A DNA stretch of 64,000 bases from a virus (Duplodnaviria > Heunggongvirae > Uroviricota > Caudoviricetes). The translations under genes were made by a program, and so were the position numbers. The DNA lies in the IMG/VR virus record IMGVR_UViG_2657245091_000008. The stretch is one strand, 5' to 3'. Below, piece after piece: positions 2,042 through 43,959 of the stretch. The notes beneath the pieces were generated by a model. That model saw only the letters and a program-made list of their open reading frames with translations, made no database searches and was not told the origin of the DNA. How positions within the stretch are numbered: position 1 is the first letter of the stretch; each line of letters starts with the position of its first letter.

Positions 2042-2947
2042 TTAACGTTCTGCTTCACCACCAACGGCCTCCACCAGCGAAGTGAACATCGCGGATAATT
2101 CAGCAGTAAACAGGATAAAGTCAGCGTCAAATCGTTGCGCAACATCCTCTCGATCAATATCGTCGTTCTGGTCGTACAATTCGTCGCTGAACGACAAAGC
2201 CTTGATACTCATATCGTCATTCAGTCTGAAAAATGCACGGTCTTGCCAGTTAACCGCAACTGTGGTTGCAACCTTACCAGCTTCTATATGACTCATGATC
2301 TCGTCGGATAGCAGGTCCACTTTTTTGCAGCGGACCGCGCCGCCATCATCAAGCAATGCTTTTAAGGTCGCTTCCTCACCGGCACGGAAACCGTTCGGGA
2401 AGCCATTTTTAATCCAGCCAGTGATGGTCAGTTCTAATGGGTCTTTCGGAGAGAAGGGGACAACGGGCAAGCTGCCAAGCGATTTCCGTAACAAAGCCAG
2501 CTGATCCTCTGCTTTTTTAGCACTGCTGGCCTCGACAAAAACCAGATGATTGCTTCGGTCTATCAGGATTTTAGCGACTGATTTTCTCGTGAAAGCACGA
2601 GGAAGCAGAGAGTGAAGCACTTCATCCTTCAGCGAATCTTTTTCAGTCTTCTTCAGCTTTCTGTCTTGCTCTTCTTCAAGTGTCAGGATTTTTTTCTGTA
2701 ACTCTTCTTTGAGCACTTGAGAGGGTAGGATTTTTTCCTCTCGTTTATGCTGTATCAGAAGAAAACCTTGGTATTCATGGGTGAGGTTGTCGCCAAGAAC
2801 GGGGGTCCAACCAGCTTTAGCCATATCCTGAGAACCGCATGGGGTAAACACAAACTTGCTAAGGGCTGCATTTACTTCTGCAGTATCCCAGCTAACTTCG
2901 CGTGAAAGACGATAGATGAAGATATTTTTGAAAGCGACTGATCTCAT
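2042..2947 (-). CDS. rdgC: recombination-associated protein RdgC homolog
   Basis: 301-aa ORF; N-terminal [12 protein letters not shown]...[14 protein letters not shown] is characteristic of RdgC. Confidence 0.85.
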
Positions 2948-2953
2948 GTCTCA

Positions 2954-2997
2954 CCATTTGTGTTAGAAAATACATATTAATTATCTAACACAAATGG
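2954..2997. promoter_or_regulatory. palindromic pair of operator-like half sites (CCATTTGTGTTAGA ... TCTAACACAAATGG)
   Basis: 14-bp perfect inverted repeat with 16-bp AT-rich spacer immediately upstream of the rdgC-like start; contains the recurrent TGTTAGAAA core. Confidence 0.5.
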
Positions 2998-3006
2998 GTG
3001 CATTTT

Positions 3007-3660
3007 CTATCCTTTCTTGAAATCGAAGTTGCTAGCAGTGGCCTGAAAGGTTCCTCCTGCCTTGAAAGCTATGTCTCCGTTAGCGGTGACAGCAATATTT
3101 TCCCCTTTAACATTGATGTTGTTGGCTGATTTGACGTTAACACTCCCTCCTGCATTCACGATTACATCAGCCGGACCAATGATATATATCTGCCCGGACT
3201 CATTCATGCCAATCCTTGAGCCTGCTGCCGTATTGGCAATTTCATAGCCGCCACCAGCAGTTCGTACTTCAAGAATATTGTTGCGGTGAATAACGAAGTC
3301 TTTCGTTGCTGAGATTTGGGGGCGGGGAGGTGCTCCATCTACTTCCGGCGGCGTCCAGCCGTTGCCTTTGCCAGATGCTTCTGGTGCAACGTTTGGAATT
3401 CCTCCCGGTGCATCCTGAGCGGCACCAACTATCATTGGGCGTCTGGTGTCTATTCGACCGTTAACATCTAAATAAGGAAACTCTACCCAGACCAGGTCAC
3501 CTTTGACTGTGGGTACAAAAGCGTTCCCGATGGGTAACTGGTATTCCGCCCAGGGTAGATCGTCATCAGGAACGCCATTCCAGTCAGGTAAAACACGGAC
3601 TTGAGCACGCATAAGCCCTGCCGGGTGCACAGTTCCAACAATTTGCGCTCTACGCTTCAT
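3007..3660 (-). CDS. hypothetical protein, Gly-rich C-terminal repeats (last gene of a 4-gene operon)
   Basis: 217-aa ORF; start overlaps the stop of the upstream gene; C-terminal G/N/V-rich repeat (NVKSANNINVKGENIAVTANGDIAFKAGG). Confidence 0.5.
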   Translation of the reverse strand: MKRRAQIVGTVHPAGLMRAQVRVLPDWNGVPDDDLPWAEYQLPIGNAFVPTVKGDLVWVEFPYLDVNGRIDTRRPMIVGAAQDAPGGIPNVAPEASGKGNGWTPPEVDGAPPRPQISATKDFVIHRNNILEVRTAGGGYEIANTAAGSRIGMNESGQIYIIGPADVIVNAGGSVNVKSANNINVKGENIAVTANGDIAFKAGGTFQATASNFDFKKG

Positions 3661-38592: not shown

Positions 38593-38985
38593 CTACCAGC
38601 GAGACAAACGAACAACATGTTTCACTTTTGCGATCCACTTTCCGCGATAACTATTGATTACGGCCTGTGCCAGCTTCAAATTGGCTTCAAAATCAGCCTT
38701 ACTACCATCAGACTCCACCAGCATTCCTCCATCTATTTCTGGTAAACATAGATAATCCTGCTCAACCTGCAGCGGCATTGATGGCTCTCTGAATGGCGTT
38801 ACTTGCTCTGCTTTCCAGCGAAATCTAACCCTCATCCCCCTGGTGGTCATTACTAGATAGCCTGTTATAGTGCTTTTATGGCCCACATCAGTACGCGTGG
38901 CATTGCATGACACGATCTTACAGTTAGCGATAGACCACTCCATATTGGTGGCCTGTTGAGTGCTTAATTTGGTAGTCCCGTACAT
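38593..38985 (-). CDS. hypothetical protein
   Basis: 130-aa ORF. Confidence 0.45.
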   Translation of the reverse strand: MYGTTKLSTQQATNMEWSIANCKIVSCNATRTDVGHKSTITGYLVMTTRGMRVRFRWKAEQVTPFREPSMPLQVEQDYLCLPEIDGGMLVESDGSKADFEANLKLAQAVINSYRGKWIAKVKHVVRLSRW

Positions 38986-39560
38986 CAGAAAGCCTCCCAG
39001 TCAGTCGCGATAATATCCACACCAGTTGCAAACCAGTCTGTCTGCGCCTGTAAATCCCCATTCATCATTACCAGGCGAGGCATCACCATCACATCGCACC
39101 CTTCCACAATATCGAATGCCTCTTCCGGCAAGAATTCGAAGAGCTTTTCTTTGCTGCCAATGCTGCCACGGAACATCGATATATAGCTCCCTTTAGGCCA
39201 TGATGTCCGCCGGGCATCAAGCCCTTTCATCATCCAGTAAAAAGCCGAGGAAAAAGGGATATTCTTTTTGCCAATGATTACATTATTCGCTTCTGTGTAC
39301 TTCAGGAACTTAACTAACCTTACCATTGACTCGGATAACGCAACGTATGGCTCATGATTGATTGCTGACACGCTTACACCGTGCAATCCAACGCTTACCA
39401 CTGTCATATCGCCGCTCTGTGCGGTTTCGATATTGACGCCTTTGCGAACTAATGAGGCGTAAAGTTCCTCTCGCTTTTGGGTCCAGCGTTCCCGCTTCCC
39501 TATGAAGTCACTCAAAATGAGATCTTCTTCTGCATATGCGTTATCGTTCGCCATTAACAT
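38985..39560 (-). CDS. hypothetical protein with DUF2829-like segment
   Basis: 191 aa; FSSAFYWMMKGLDARRTSWPKGSYI resembles the DUF2829 core. Confidence 0.4.
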   Translation of the reverse strand: MLMANDNAYAEEDLILSDFIGKRERWTQKREELYASLVRKGVNIETAQSGDMTVVSVGLHGVSVSAINHEPYVALSESMVRLVKFLKYTEANNVIIGKKNIPFSSAFYWMMKGLDARRTSWPKGSYISMFRGSIGSKEKLFEFLPEEAFDIVEGCDVMVMPRLVMMNGDLQAQTDWFATGVDIIATDWEAF

Positions 39561-40014
39561 AACGTCTCCTTTTTTACGCGCGCGACTATCCCCCGGAAGT
39601 ACCGGTAGTGATGTCGTAACTTCGTATTAATTAAGGGGTACAGCCTGAGCGGCTATATGATGAATTGAAAGGAGTTGTGGCGGTGGTGCCTCCACCTGCC
39701 AGGTTAGCCACTCCTGGCGACGTCACTTATCAGAACGTAGTGAATGAAAATGGCTTCGTCACGAGCGCATAGCCGCAATTACCACAACGGAAACGGCGCT
39801 CGCATTAATTAAACGCCTTTTCCTGTTGTGCGCCGTACTCTTCCGGCTGTCACACCGAATCGCCAGGATGGTGAGTCCCTGAGTCCGCTATCCCTCCAGC
39901 GGTGACTTGCACATTCCGGCTACCTGATGTGCCCATGCAGTGTTAGTAAGGTACCTAACAGCTACACCAGACCGCTAACGACGCATGTGCCATACGTCGT
40001 GTTACAACCAAATA

Positions 40015-40090
40015 TGGTGGCCCCTACCGGATTTGAACCGGTGACCGTGCGATTATGAGTCGCCTGCTCTAACCACTGAGCTAAAGGGCC
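40015..40090 (-). tRNA. tRNA-Ile (anticodon CAU, ileX-like) or tRNA-Met
   Basis: Minus-strand GGCCCTTTAGCTCAGTGGTTAGAGCAGGCGACTCATAATCGC...GGTTCAAATCC...GGGGCCACCA; cloverleaf with CAU anticodon and encoded CCA; very close to E. coli ileX as I recall it. Confidence 0.8.
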
Positions 40091-40227
40091 AGATTACTGT
40101 TAATTCCGCTTACGCTTTTTGCCAGAACCGCGTAAGGCTTTTGCCGCTTGCTCGACCCCATATGCAACCACCAGCAAAAATAAAAATGTCCAACCAGGGT
40201 TCTTATCGGCAAACGCCCAAAAATTCA

Positions 40228-40551
40228 TCACTTACAGCCACCTTGCATTTCCTCGGATAATTCATTGATTTTAGTGCTCAATAAGTAATCAAAGTAAAGA
40301 TAAAACACAAAAGTAACGATAGTGCTTAAAGTGTCTGAAATTGCGTATTTCAGCTCAGGAAGCATGACAAAGCAGACAAATAGCGGAAGAAATAACTGCA
40401 CTATGCACAGGCTCTCCTTCCACAACCATCTATATCTGAAGTCTGACAACAAAAACTCCATTGCTTGAAACTTTATTAGATTGCGGTGCCTGGTGCCTCC
40501 AGGTGACGTTAACCAGTTAACAATTAACGCCGGGATGTTTGACTTAACCAC
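40228..40551 (-). CDS. possible small membrane protein between tRNA genes
   Basis: 107-aa AT-rich ORF with hydrophobic stretches; no clear ribosome-binding site. Confidence 0.25.
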   Translation of the reverse strand: MVKSNIPALIVNWLTSPGGTRHRNLIKFQAMEFLLSDFRYRWLWKESLCIVQLFLPLFVCFVMLPELKYAISDTLSTIVTFVFYLYFDYLLSTKINELSEEMQGGCK

Positions 40552-40711
40552 TAAGGAGGATTGTTTTAACTGTTCCGCGTGCGCTTAGCCGCATTCACCG
40601 CAATGGTAAGAGCACTTGGCTGGCTGGGCGGCGATGACGCCTGTACGCATTTGGTGATCCGGTTCTGCTTCCGGCATTCGCTTAATTAGCCAAATACTCT
40701 TAACGTTGCGC

Positions 40712-40798
40712 TGGCGGAGAGTAATGGAATCGAACCATCATCGCTTGCGCAATGGGACGGTTTTCAAGACCGCTTGAGCACCATGCTCCCTACTCTCC
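40712..40798 (-). tRNA. class II tRNA, anticodon UGA (tRNA-Ser-like)
   Basis: 87 nt; acceptor GGAGAGT/ACTCTCC, anticodon loop CUUGAAA, variable arm with GCAA tetraloop, T loop TTCGATT, discriminator G, encoded CCA. Confidence 0.65.
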
Positions 40799-41170
40799 CG
40801 TTATTGTGGCGACCGGTGCTGATCTCCGGCTTGCGGTTATTTCAGACTCTCACGGGCGTTTAATTGCCCCGCCGAACAGCTCTTTTCCGCAATAGCTGCA
40901 ATGTCTTTCGCGCATCAGCCTGCGCATTCACCACAATGTTGAGAACACTGGTTGTCACGCTGCAACGCAACATTTATTCGTAGATTGGGATATGACCCCG
41001 TTACGCCAGTGTTCTCAACGTTGTAGTGCCGGTTACGGTTCCGGCCAGGCCTCTTCCTCAACGGGGTGTTCTCCATACGGACTACCGTTTATTGGTCGTT
41101 CCTGCGGTTTATGTTGTGAAGCCAGATGCTTATCTTCTGGTTGCTTCAAAGAGCTGCACTTCCTCACAAC

Positions 41171-41244
41171 GGTAAGGGTACTTCGTAGGGATTCGAACCC
41201 TCTGCCAAGCTCGGCGATCTCCGACGTCGCAAAATACCCTTACC
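41171..41244 (-). other. tRNA-like fragment / degenerate tRNA
   Basis: Contains a T-arm-like GGGTTCGAATCCC and a 10-bp terminal inverted repeat (GGTAAGGGTA...TACCCTTACC) but no foldable anticodon or D arm. Confidence 0.3.
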
Positions 41245-41252
41245 TGTTGTGC

Positions 41253-41328
41253 TGGTGCCGATTAACGGACTCGAACCGCTGACCATTCGCTTACAAAGCG
41301 ACTGCTCTACCAACTGAGCTAAATCGGC
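41253..41328 (-). tRNA. tRNA-Thr (anticodon UGU)
   Basis: GCCGATTTAGCTCAGTTGGTAGAGCAGTCGCTTTGTAAGCGAATGGTCAGCGGTTCGAGTCCGTTAATCGGCACCA on the minus strand. Confidence 0.85.
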
Positions 41329-41332
41329 AATT

Positions 41333-41419
41333 TGGTGGGGAGTGATGGAGTCGAACCACCCGAGTCGCAATGACAGTAGATTTACAGTCTACCCCGCTAC
41401 CCCTACGGACTAACTCCCC
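41333..41419 (-). tRNA. tRNA-Tyr (anticodon GUA)
   Basis: 87-nt class II tRNA; anticodon arm GTAGACTGTAAATCTAC, T loop GGTTCGACTCC, discriminator A, CCA. Confidence 0.8.
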
Positions 41420-41424
41420 TAAAG

Positions 41425-41501
41425 TGGCGATGGTGGGTGGATTCGAACCACCGACCGACAGCTTAGAAGGCTGCTGCTCTATCCTACTGAGCTACACCAT
41501 C
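41425..41501 (-). tRNA. tRNA-Arg (anticodon UCU, rare AGA/AGG decoder)
   Basis: GATGGTGTAGCTCAGTAGGATAGAGCAGCAGCCTTCTAAGCTGTCGGTCGGTGGTTCGAATCCACCCACCATCGCCA. Confidence 0.8.
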
Positions 41502-42735
41502 ACTTGCCGGGTACGTCTCCGGCGAGGGCTTCCACCTCCGTATGCTTTTCGGCGCACCGCGCCCTGGCTGCAATTCGGTAACAGGGGATGCATAACCCTG
41601 GCTTCCAGCGTGATTAGCGCCTTCAGCATGACGGGATATACCCGTTACAAGAAATTCCCCCAGGATGCCATTAAGCAATGGCTGTTACGCGGGAGGGACG
41701 TAACAGGTAAGGGCGCTGACCAGAAAGACCTGACCCTTCTCATTCATCTGGTTAATCACACCAGCGCCCTTGCCTGTTATGCCTCCCCGTTCCCTAATAC
41801 ACAGACGGGGACACTCTGCGGTCGATTTTTTGACGGGGGACGACTCATACCCCGTGGCGTCTGGCTTCTTAGGCCGCTACCATCATCAGATCATCGTTTG
41901 CATTTACTTTAATGGTCGGTTTCTAAACCGCCGCAAAGTCGCTAACCATGACGAAAACCCTAAAAAAGCCCACCCGAAGATGGGCAAATACGCTACATCT
42001 CACACAAGAAAGAAGCCGACTGCCTGAGCTGGATTCACTTTCAAATGCCCGCAGAAAGGGATCACAAGTCGGCTTCTTTCTTGATGCGGCACTCTCTCCG
42101 CCCGTCACCGCTCTGTCTCGGTTGTCGCGTTTGCCACGCCAGCCGTAACGAGGTTTAAAGTCTTTGCACGTTTCCATCACTCGACTGCCGTCTGTGGCTG
42201 TTCGTTGCAGCGGGGGTGCCTCCCCCTGGGGATATCCCCGGCCTTACCCCATTCTTTCAAGACACAATGCAAGGCCACATCCGCATAGGTGCATTACCGC
42301 AACATTAAGGAGACTCAGGGCAAAAGGTAACCGCCACAAAAATCCCTATGCCTCCTTAATGTTGAAGATGTGCATTGATGATTAGATGCAGCATGTACTG
42401 TTACTCTCTGCCGGACCATCATCAATGAACACCTTAAAAAGACCTTCCGTGGCTCAACATGTATTGTCGTTTACTCCGCAAAGTGCTCTCTCTGAAACCA
42501 CTTTCCGCACTAAACCTGTTGAACTTTGGTCAGCTCGGTGCCAAAGCGTGCTTTTGCTTTACTATACTTTTCTAACACTTTAATTTGTTAACAGCCGGTG
42601 GGCAAACAATAACCAATAAGTGACTATCAAGCCCAGCAAGCGAAACGTGGGTGCCGCCCACCAGCAAGGAAAATTCTATGTTAAGTTATCATCACAATCA
42701 ATACATTCGAATTGTGATTTTAGATTTCTAACACA

Positions 42736-43959
42736 TTACTTCCCGTAAAGATCTTCTACGCCCCCATTCTTCTTATCCCATTCGTTCGCCCATACCCGGC
42801 AAGCGTCAATGATTTCCTGACGACGATCTCCTTGCATGAACGGGATGCTTTCATGGAAACAGCTTGGAATGCAGGCCACACTGAATACGGTATCAAACTC
42901 CGTCTGCTTGATTGCCTCCAGCGTCTCTGGACGCATTTTTAATTCATCGATTGGCGCATCCTTAGAGTCCATAATCCGGCGATATAAGCGCGGAAAATCC
43001 GTCTCCAGGTACGCCATAATTTTATCTGCGAGACATTCGTCTATGTCGGTATTCCAGTCCTTTTCGAAGCCCGGCAGGCGATAGTAAAGCGGCGTTCCCC
43101 ATACCGATGGGATCACATCCATCGTTAACAGGCGATTGGTTCTGATTTGTTGATGGTAATTAGCCGTCAGCAGTGCTTCGCCACGCTGCCCAGTTTCCGC
43201 AACCAGGCCGTGCGGATACTCATGGATGTAGGCAATGGCATCCCTTCCATCATACATAAGTGGAAATGTCTCTGGTCTTTGTCCCATGCCACAAGCACGG
43301 TTCAGATCGTGACCAAGCTGTGAGCACTCTCGCTTTAATGTTTCGATAATGCTCTGCGCTGTAGCCAACTTTTTACGCAGTGTGACGCCTTCGCCTTGAT
43401 AATCAATGCATTGCTGATTGAGCTTGGTTAAACGCTCTTTTAGTTCCCGGCGCTCTCTTTTCAGCGTGCGGTTATCCTTCTCCGCAACATCCAGCCGCTT
43501 TGTCAGGCTGGGCGGATAGTCTTTTTTGTAACGGTTCAAATCGGCTTCGGCAGATTTACGCAGTGTATTTGCCTGTTCAAGACGCGCTTCCAGATTGCCG
43601 ATCTCATTACGCATATTCGCGGCAAATTGATTAACTGCATCACCCAGGCTTTCAACTGTCGCTGATACGCCTGTGACTTGTGAAAAACGGATCAAGCCAT
43701 CATTAACGGCTTGTTGGTATTCCTCAAACTGATCCACCAGCTTATTGTAATCAACTGCCCCATCATCAAGCAGCTTGTTGATTTCCGCCACCAGGTTATC
43801 TGTAGTGGCAATGACACTCTCGTGCAGTCGCTTTGACAGGTCATCACCCGGATTCCGTTTCTGTATAAGAGCGATTTGTGTGCGCAGCGTTTCAATTGCT
43901 GTCGAGATAATTTCCAGATTAGAAGTATCAGTGTGTTGACTCATTGCTGTTCCCGTCAC
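42736..43959 (-). CDS. hypothetical coiled-coil protein
   Basis: 407-aa ORF; operator-like sites both upstream (43962-43988) and at its 3' end (42719-42738). Confidence 0.5.
   Translation of the reverse strand: MTGTAMSQHTDTSNLEIISTAIETLRTQIALIQKRNPGDDLSKRLHESVIATTDNLVAEINKLLDDGAVDYNKLVDQFEEYQQAVNDGLIRFSQVTGVSATVESLGDAVNQFAANMRNEIGNLEARLEQANTLRKSAEADLNRYKKDYPPSLTKRLDVAEKDNRTLKRERRELKERLTKLNQQCIDYQGEGVTLRKKLATAQSIIETLKRECSQLGHDLNRACGMGQRPETFPLMYDGRDAIAYIHEYPHGLVAETGQRGEALLTANYHQQIRTNRLLTMDVIPSVWGTPLYYRLPGFEKDWNTDIDECLADKIMAYLETDFPRLYRRIMDSKDAPIDELKMRPETLEAIKQTEFDTVFSVACIPSCFHESIPFMQGDRRQEIIDACRVWANEWDKKNGGVEDLYGK

Follow-up and report, generated by a model that had tools for sequence, protein, structure and literature searches.

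A five-tRNA cluster in a D6-type relative of phage P1 is a minority allele of a known modular tRNA region

In phage P1 (NC_005856), the tRNA genes trnA-Asn, trnT-Thr and trnI-Ile2 lie, together with tciABC between the last two, inside the C1-controlled ban operon, while the tRNAs published for the D6-like plasmid prophages are Asn, Thr, Ser and 'Met' (PMC6799933). Here we describe the corresponding region in a stretch of 64,000 nucleotides from the caudoviral record IMGVR_UViG_2657245091_000008 (hereafter the window, meaning this whole stretch), where five tRNA genes are found between 40015 and 41501. The 1.9-kb tRNA region matches P1-family phages, the top phage match being D6 (NC_050154; 93% identity, 73% coverage), as well as public P1-like plasmids from E. 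coli and Salmonella (9 records with 100% coverage at 95-99.9% identity, 74 records with at least 80% coverage). Because both the best phage match and the flanking gene set are those of D6, the source element is a D6-type relative of P1 rather than P1 proper. The finding is confirmed and mostly ordinary, the cluster being an allele of a known phage tRNA region that is partly annotated in public sequences. The reading that we favour, and hold to be fairly probable, is that of a portable polycistronic tRNA operon that supplies codon decoders, with long hairpins as spacers of its transcript.

ARAGORN, run over the whole window, predicts exactly five tRNA genes, all on the minus strand, as are the features described below unless stated otherwise. 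Together with Rfam searches at gathering thresholds (29 bits for RF00005), it places tRNA-Arg(UCU), a decoder of AGA and probably of AGG too, at 41425-41501 (72.1 bits), a class II tRNA-Tyr(GUA) at 41333-41419 (41.9 bits), tRNA-Thr(UGU), which decodes ACA, at 41253-41328 (69.6 bits), tRNA-Ser(UGA) at 40712-40798 (43.5 bits with the tRNA-Sec model) and tRNA-Ile2(CAU) at 40015-40090 (68.2 bits). The Rfam tRNA threshold is passed by four of the five (Arg, Thr, CAU and Tyr). Thr and Tyr are separated by 4 nt and Tyr and Arg by 5 nt, the 3'-CCA is encoded in every gene, and all five anticodon loops are identical to those of their E. coli host counterparts. An initial annotation, made from the letters alone, had proposed this list with the same anticodons, coordinates and gaps of 4-5 nt, and ARAGORN bears it out; the accompanying statement that the set differs from that of P1 (Asn-Thr...Ile) holds as well.

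We surveyed 120 viral contigs, fetched by the hairpin motif described below, by running ARAGORN on all loci. Five arrangements recur, namely Asn-Thr...CAU (40 loci), Asn-Thr-Ser-CAU (11 loci), Asn-Tyr-Thr-CAU (11 loci), Arg-Tyr-Thr-Ser-CAU (5 loci, the window, whose arrangement this is, included) and Arg-Thr-Ser-CAU (3 loci), and truncated forms of the five are also present. The region is combinatorial: Asn or Arg, an optional Tyr, Thr, an optional Ser, and then Ile2. The set in the window is a minority allele of this known modular region and is already to be found in public plasmids and phages.

The leader-plus-tRNA module is about 97% conserved among the window, D6 and P1, and the genes upstream of it are unrelated. 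With P1, the window shares the leader of about 480 nt, the Thr slot, Ile2 (97% identical), and the orientation and order of the module, whereas Arg-Tyr takes the place of the P1 Asn gene, Ser is lacking in P1, and two small ORFs (open reading frames) stand where P1 has tciA, tciB and tciC. The module also sits differently, between dmt and ban in P1 but between a PmgS-like ORF and a Tad2-like gene with lpa in the window. The upstream PmgS-like ORF and the downstream orf6/orf5/Lpa-like set are those of D6, whose Ser gene is 99% identical and whose Thr-Ser spacer is about 99% identical over the first 320 nt or so (hairpins B and C included) and then diverges. Unlike the window, with its Arg-Tyr-Thr, D6 has Asn-Thr, carries another anticodon stem in its Thr gene, and has kept tciA and tciB. 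The D6 RefSeq record (2771-3476 of our locus L002) annotates Ser, Thr and Asn on the strand opposite to that of the homologues in the window, P1 and Ro157c2YLVW, which is probably an annotation error.

The same five specificities occur, in another order and spacing, in the cluster of the rV5-like phage LL12 (Vequintavirus), which reads Arg-Tyr-Ser-?-Thr-Met-Pro. Its Tyr and Ser genes are 93% and 91% identical to those of the window, while its Arg, Thr and CAU genes reach just 70-73%. A megablast search with the window query gave no matches to the hairpin modules in rV5-like phages, the LL12 cluster itself not being inspected for them. Adjoining the Ser homologue, LL12 has a 99-nt tRNA-like gene (790-888 of our locus L124) that is annotated as tRNA-Lys with an inconsistent isotype and to which ARAGORN gives a 4-base anticodon (atcc), another non-canonical phage tRNA.

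The CAU gene was called Ile rather than Met in the initial annotation, and rightly. Its best chromosomal match is tRNA-Ile at 89.5% identity in all 5,426 of 5,426 complete E. coli genomes, and the plasmid copies are annotated tRNA-Ile by PGAP, the ARAGORN label Met following from the anticodon. Nucleotides 1-42, comprising the acceptor 5' strand (GGCCC), the D-arm and the anticodon arm, equal the K-12 gene exactly. On this sequence evidence the gene is an Ile2-type tRNA with a body homologous to ileX/ileY and a predicted decoder of AUA, and host TilS would be expected to modify its C34 to lysidine. One IMG/VR contig (L097, 2199-2274) carries an Ile2 that differs from the P1 allele by C34-to-T alone, giving tRNA-Ile(UAU); this could be a real variant, in which AUA decoding is kept and the TilS lysidine step is dispensable, or a sequencing error. 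The change lends indirect support to lysidine at C34 in the CAU genes.

The other tRNAs are more distant from the host genes, with identities of 79% for Thr to thrU, 69% for Tyr to tyrU and 69% for Arg to argU. The Thr gene is 97% identical to that of Ro157c2YLVW and 90% to those of P1 and D6, and the Tyr gene is 100% identical to its Ro157c2YLVW counterpart. The Arg gene is nearer to the family's own Asn gene (78-82%) than to rV5-like Arg (70%). Compared with a common Asn(GUU) allele, its acceptor stem, D-stem, variable loop and T-arm are identical, and the differences are confined to the D-loop and to an anticodon arm of 17 nt that is similar to the Arg(UCU) arms of other phages. Because the differences are clustered in these two places, the comparison points to a chimera, in which a segmental swap would have put a new D-loop and anticodon arm on a fixed Asn scaffold. 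Arginyl-tRNA synthetase (ArgRS) identity depends on A20 in the D-loop, C35 and U36/G73. The Arg gene has the D-loop AGUAGGAUA, of argU type (GGAUA with A20), the anticodon UCU and discriminator G73, and its D-arm and anticodon loop match argU, so that by sequence it appears to hold the identity elements of ArgRS; G73 is common to the Asn and Arg identities.

The Ser gene is the least canonical of the five. It stays below the Rfam thresholds of both RF00005 and RF01852, the tRNA-Sec model scoring 43.5 bits against a cutoff of 47, and it is only 64% identical to serT. PGAP labels it 'tRNA-OTHER', and the authors of the D6 sequence remark that tRNAscan-SE gives no amino acid. The class II Ser-like character that the initial annotation had assigned to it is upheld; tRNAscan-based annotation gives the gene no isotype, whereas the anticodons proposed for Ser and Arg were never reassigned by any program. 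Homologues are found in P7 (AF503408; 100% identical, in a segment without annotation), in rV5-like phages (about 90%) and in Klebsiella and Acinetobacter phages (73-78%).

We parsed the arms of seven phage homologues of this gene sequence by sequence, as a MAFFT alignment had mis-registered the D-arm. All helices pair in 7/7 homologues, with compensatory changes in the D, anticodon and T stems; the D-arm has a 4-5 bp stem and a 3-4 nt loop throughout, and its compensatory pairs include GAGCA/UGCUC, UGCUC/GAGCA, GUCA/UGAC and GCUA/UAGC. The variable arm is 17 nt long (5-bp stem, GCAA loop) and the discriminator is G73, or U73 in the Acinetobacter homologue. A8 can form an eighth acceptor pair with a U that otherwise closes the 5-bp T-stem as a G-U pair; since A8 and the G and U at the 5' and 3' ends of the T-stem are invariant in all seven, the 8/4 and 7/5 forms are indistinguishable by covariation, and RNAfold favours the extended acceptor while ARAGORN draws 7/5. 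The 15-nt anticodon-arm core CGGUCUUGAAAACCG is identical to that of serT, and the gene has the pairs G1-C72, G2-C71 and A3-U70. From these pairs, G73, the variable arm and the serT-identical core, we infer that the tRNA would be serylated by seryl-tRNA synthetase (SerRS); it is a predicted decoder of UCA. The long variable arm, G73/U73, the tRNA-Sec-like D-arm and the high tRNA-Sec model score also fit the sequence profile of the (8/4) tRNA-Ser/allo-tRNA class, which Mukai et al. (NAR 2017, PMC5389517) described from bacteriophages and proteobacteria.

Codon usage was compared between 53 long ORFs of the window (15,566 codons) and 40 ORFs of a 50-kb K-12 segment (14,612 codons) obtained by the same ORF procedure. 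The six codons most enriched in the window ORFs are AGG (6.3x), AUA (5.2x), AGA (4.7x), ACA (2.65x), CGA (2.6x) and UCA (2.35x), with Fisher p <1e-10 for every cognate codon. Among these six, AUA is the direct cognate of Ile2, AGA of Arg(UCU), ACA of Thr(UGU) and UCA of Ser(UGA), and AGG is likely the wobble partner of Arg(UCU). As the phage-enriched codons match the tRNA set, codon supplementation is supported as its main role.

The module also contains long hairpins with related base sequences, five of which (A to E) are present in the window with z-scores from -2.8 to -6.9. Hairpin A (41695-41787; -45.4 kcal/mol, z -4.5; inverted repeat I1, repeat family D6) has the base CAUAACAGGCAAGGG.../...CCCUUACCUGUUA. 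Hairpin B (41165-41251; -41.6 kcal/mol, z -5.0) has a stem of about 22 bp and starts about 1-4 nt past the CCA of tRNA-Thr, and hairpin C (40929-41028; -49.2 kcal/mol, z -6.9; inverted repeat I2, family D4) has one of about 23 bp. Hairpin D (40599-40710; -46.5 kcal/mol, z -2.8; families D4 and D7), with an imperfect stem of about 20 bp, directly follows the CCA of Ser, and hairpins C and D are each followed by GGUGAAUGCG and a small hairpin. Hairpin E (39781-39833; families D4, D6, D7 and D10), formed by CACAACAGGAAAAGGCG.../...CGCCGUUUCCGUUGUGG and with UAAUUGCG and then a small hairpin after it, is present in D6 and absent from P1. No Rfam family, DicF included, was matched over the hairpins or the leader. 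From their sequence and placement we infer that the hairpins are spacer elements of a polycistronic tRNA transcript, and judged by anatomy their stems are of the sort of length expected for RNase III-type processing or 3'-end protection.

The tip of hairpin B (41171-41244) includes a perfect T-arm (GGGUUCGAAUCCC), with the 13-mer GGGTTCGAATCCC, and a helix resembling a D-arm, but no anticodon arm. The initial annotation had described these 74 bp as a degenerate tRNA-like element; the T-arm-like sequence and the missing anticodon arm were seen correctly, but the element is not particular to this genome, being identical in P1 and D6, and is in fact the tip of a conserved long hairpin that bears other tips in other relatives. 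As a tRNA it has no RF00005 match, and a 131-nt permissive scan gave only mascRNA at 14.9 bits (E 0.93) and tRNA-Sec at 14.6 bits (E 1.4). A tRNA gene at this position was rejected, given that ARAGORN accepts one only when its default thresholds are lowered to 60% or below, and then with mutually inconsistent models (relaxed, mitochondrial). Chance is very unlikely to have produced an exact 13-nt T-arm consensus within 64 kb, so that descent from a tRNA is likely, and the tip is most likely a relic or mimic of a tRNA, as its sequence suggests, and not a decoder.

Across the viral contigs, hairpin B is represented by 27 distinct cores with the base CAC-AACAGGTAAGRGYA...TRCYCTTACCGTTG-TG and by at least 8 unrelated tips of 63-89 nt, and it starts 4-5 nt past the CCA of tRNA-Thr in 99 of about 157 instances. 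The T-arm tip of the window, P1 and D6 is also found in about 75 viral contigs. Ro157c2YLVW preserves the stem by compensatory changes and has an unrelated tip without a T-arm, and one locus (L005) has a second, unrelated tip with a T-arm-like hairpin, GUAGAG-UUCGACU-CUCUAC. Two other identities for these elements were tried and dropped. An integron attC-like cassette of tRNA plus hairpin is not consistent with Arg, Tyr and Thr being joined by 4-5 nt without a hairpin, the conserved ends misfit the attC core, and there is no integrase among the flanking ORFs examined; a boxA/nut-like reading of UGCUCUUA, which occurs in some 3' arms, was abandoned as the motif is not conserved among the window's own hairpins.

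Upstream of the module, 42569-42741 is a candidate control region by its sequence. It holds a sigma-70-like promoter (TTGATT-17-TAGAAT, 42701-42673), the only one that a promoter scan found upstream of the module, surrounded by two copies (42725-42741 and 42569-42585) of a 17-nt repeat (D8) with the core TGTTAGAAA. Exact copies of this 9-nt core occur 12 times in the window, at 2961, 14473, 15131, 19628, 32720, 34130, 42569, 42725, 43974, 45017, 54919 and 56118, in both orientations relative to the neighbouring genes and always (12/12) in intergenic positions, which makes it, by sequence, a candidate operator for the D6-type phage's own repressor. With its AT-rich extension, roughly TGTTAGAAAACTAATTT, and up to 2 mismatches, the motif has 12 matches against 5.2 expected. 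In P1, the tRNA module lies downstream of the C1-controlled Pban and upstream of ban, and the promoter and TGTTAGAAA pair of the window parallel this arrangement of Pban and operator. An intrinsic-terminator-like hairpin (GCCCATCTTCGGGTGGGC followed by T6; 41968-41985) marks the upstream edge of the leader that is about 97% conserved with P1 and D6. Downstream, the Ile2 trailer contains a hairpin (39929-39972) whose apex is the 20-nt palindrome 39941-39960.

In the operon that we propose, the module would be transcribed in the minus direction, probably as part of a repressor-controlled early-lytic unit reaching the Tad2-like gene and lpa, and host enzymes would process the transcript to five elongator tRNAs. 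Ile2, Arg-UCU, Thr-UGU and Ser-UGA would then serve AUA, AGA/AGG, ACA and UCA, which are poorly decoded by the host, and allow the phage to make protein rapidly in the lytic phase. The long hairpins next to or between the tRNAs would be signals for processing and/or stability, and RNase III-type enzymes might cut them. Several observations weigh against this account. The codon match is a correlation, in an element of lower GC in which A-ending and rare codons are broadly enriched, and CGA, AGT and AAT are enriched too without a matching phage tRNA. Tyr, with its codons enriched only about 1.25x, is not explained by codon usage, and no single tRNA appears essential, as relatives carry Asn in place of Arg or lack Ser or Tyr. 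The processing role of the hairpins is read from anatomy, and the terminator-like hairpin stands between the candidate promoter and the tRNAs, so that read-through or another promoter must be assumed. The Tyr gene in particular invites an alternative that we regard as possible though doubtful, in which some or all of the tRNAs (especially Tyr and those of the Asn/Arg slot) replace host tRNAs destroyed by tRNA-targeting immunity systems or toxins and thereby sustain translation once abortive infection has been set off. Candidate agents are retron-Eco7 and Septu PtuAB, acting on tRNA-Tyr, PrrC-like anticodon nucleases, and the colicins that cleave tRNA. Tyr and Ser, each present in some relatives and missing from others, and the alternating Asn and Arg behave as accessory genes do, the cluster adjoins a Tad2-like anti-Thoeris gene, and the tci genes of P1 are annotated for colicin/tellurite resistance. 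The mechanism also has published support in other phages: a T5 tRNA-Tyr rescues infection from retron-Eco7 (PMC11555353), Septu is reported to cleave tRNA-Tyr (PMC13096335), and changes in the anticodon loop have been put forward as a way for phage tRNAs to escape anticodon nucleases (PMC10264068). Here, however, all five loops are host-identical and show no sign of such escape, an encounter with a relevant nuclease is not indicated by any of our results, and the very good match of four of the five tRNAs to phage codon bias is not predicted by counter-defence. The two roles are not mutually exclusive.

The hairpins themselves could be more than spacers. That they are functional small RNAs excised from the tRNA transcript, with variable tips conferring specificity, either as tRNA mimics that lure tRNA-binding enzymes or nucleases or through base pairing or sponging, seems to us unlikely. 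Precedents exist for structured non-tRNA RNAs in tRNA transcripts and for tRNA-like processing handles: the T4 tRNA cluster encodes stable RNAs without known function, the E. coli 3'ETS-leuZ is a small-RNA sponge, and tRNA-like folds serve as handles for RNase P on the C4 antisense RNA of P1/P7 and in mascRNA. The wholesale exchange of tips on a stem base kept by compensatory changes, the recurrence of one T-arm tip in P1, D6, the window and about 75 viral contigs, and the T-arm-like tip of L005 are in keeping with such a function, as is GGUGAAUGCG, which follows hairpins C and D at the point where a match to STnc100 begins and links them to a prophage small-RNA family. Yet the hairpins have no significant similarity to the T4 stable RNAs, 3'ETS-leuZ, C4 or mascRNA and match no Rfam family, the T-arm tip varies too little for a covariation test of the inner helices, and the identity among P1, D6 and the window may reflect recent recombination, as the flanking 320 nt are also about 99% identical. 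A protein-coding explanation, in which the Thr-Ser spacer is conserved for the opposite-strand proteins Plp and Upl and the hairpins are incidental, could appeal to the P1 reference annotation, which puts plp and upl over this segment, and to a 96-aa open frame in the window (40992-41282, plus strand). It is extremely improbable and was rejected, since the frame is not conserved among relatives: it spans 31-156 aa across the hairpin, even with the same tip, and tip lengths (63, 82, 84 and 85 nt) differ by non-multiples of three. The 96-aa product is moreover compositionally odd and overlaps the tRNA-Thr gene, and upl is missing from the window, where the Ser gene takes its place. The initial annotation had, finally, pointed to the palindrome 39941-39960 as operator-like. 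It is present, 55 nt from the CAU gene, with perfect arms of only 6 bp. Both arms contain TGTTAG, the first six bases of TGTTAGAAA, and each half matches 11/17 positions of the extended consensus, but the AT-rich half of the motif is missing. The 17-bp operator consensus of P1 C1, which we take to be ATTGCTCTAATAAATTT, has no match with up to 3 mismatches in the whole window and is unrelated to the sequence of the palindrome, and the site lies in a transcribed trailer without a promoter-like site nearby. D6 has TGTTAGAAA sites upstream of its module and yet a different hairpin here; a GGGG...CCCC stem occupies the position in P1, D6 and most relatives, the window's stem being found in just four sources, and the loop core ACCTT is kept in P1 and most relatives. 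A stem that changes among relatives in this way is how an RNA hairpin behaves; the palindrome is the apex of a longer, imperfect hairpin, the operator-like reading is not supported, and a role as a DNA operator for a phage repressor is very unlikely.

A more speculative proposal, to which we give little credence, is that the hairpins starting within a few nucleotides of tRNA 3' ends belong to a family of phage spacer RNAs not described before, with a conserved processing stem and exchangeable tips, in which the excised T-arm tip is a tRNA mimic, and that Arg/Asn is a case of natural identity switching. The common tip of P1, P7-like and D6-like elements, which lies under 'plp', would then mimic the acceptor, T-arm and D-arm of a tRNA and, once excised, could serve tRNA-binding host factors (RNase P, TruB/TrmA, EF-Tu-independent nucleases or tRNA-targeting defence effectors) as a decoy or handle. 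Arg and Asn would have switched identity on one scaffold when the D-loop and anticodon arm were exchanged as a cassette.

None of these results overturns current understanding. Their practical value is mostly one of annotation hygiene in a large and clinically common group of phage-plasmids of E. coli, Salmonella and Klebsiella, where the CAU gene should be labelled Ile2 rather than Met, the 'tRNA-OTHER' or unannotated gene (8/4)-type Ser(UGA), and the plp and upl ORFs of P1, which overlie conserved RNA hairpins, are probably not genes. As far as we found, the (8/4)-type Ser in the P1/D6 family, the Asn and Arg genes on one scaffold, the hairpin family with a tRNA-like tip under 'plp', and the match of the tRNA set to codon bias are under-described; our literature search returned no relevant description of transcripts of the P1 tRNA region, of the TGTTAGAAA motif or of tRNA/codon-usage studies in P1-like elements. 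The locus is also a compact natural experiment, in which close relatives carry different combinations of the same tRNA modules, and a convenient system in which to separate the codon-supply and anti-defence roles of phage tRNAs.

Directly downstream of the module lies the Tad2-like (anti-Thoeris) ORF of 191 aa (38985-39560; PF11195, 39.1 bits, cutoff 25), followed by a 130-aa ORF without an assigned function and then by Lpa (PF25716, 192 bits), neighbours that place the tRNAs within an accessory/early gene block. The two small ORFs in the tciA/B/C slot of P1 (80 aa, 40228-40470; 43 aa, 40100-40231) are rich in hydrophobic residues. Family searches with both gave zero matches, and a near-identical plasmid has a hypothetical-protein coding sequence at the position of the 43-aa ORF. 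Between these ORFs and tRNA-Ser, after hairpin D, the segment 40482-40602 resembles the structured RNA STnc100 (RF02076; 39.4 bits against a gathering score of 47, E about 1e-6), and being below threshold it is not filed as a member. The match is partial, covering model positions 31-147 of 206 with the GGUGAAU start and the closing helix, and the equivalent segment of P1 lies upstream of tciA. The STnc100/PasD family is prophage-borne and often near tRNA hits (bioRxiv 10.64898/2026.05.13.724894), its place being the lambdoid late region as opposed to the P1-type tRNA operon seen here.

Three further observations concern the leader and the trailer. At 42005-42083, in the place of the 'dicF-like region' of P1, a hairpin with a perfect 17-bp inverted repeat precedes the terminator-like hairpin 41968-41985; the terminator alone is common to P1, there is no Rfam DicF match, and the unit looks like a small RNA or an attenuator. 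Within the part of the leader conserved with P1 and D6, 41869-41901 holds a start-less frame, GCA AAC GAT GAT CTG ATG ATG GTA GCG GCC TAA, whose translation ANDDLMMVAA* is like the E. coli transfer-messenger RNA (tmRNA) tag ANDENYALAA* in its length and in how it starts and ends; the window has one instance of the pattern and 300 shuffles have none. A tmRNA reading was rejected, as ARAGORN finds no tmRNA, RF04321 (tmRNA_permuted) scores 24.1 bits against 47, and there is no blastn similarity to ssrA. Downstream of the Ile2 trailer hairpin, a segment of about 90 nt (39835-39925; CAGGTAGCCGGAATGTGCAAG ... CACCATCCTGGCGATTCGGTGTGACAGCCGGAAGAG) is almost invariant among the window, P1, D6 and Ro157c2YLVW even though the gene that follows differs (ban in P1, Tad2-like here), and it may be another conserved RNA element or leader.

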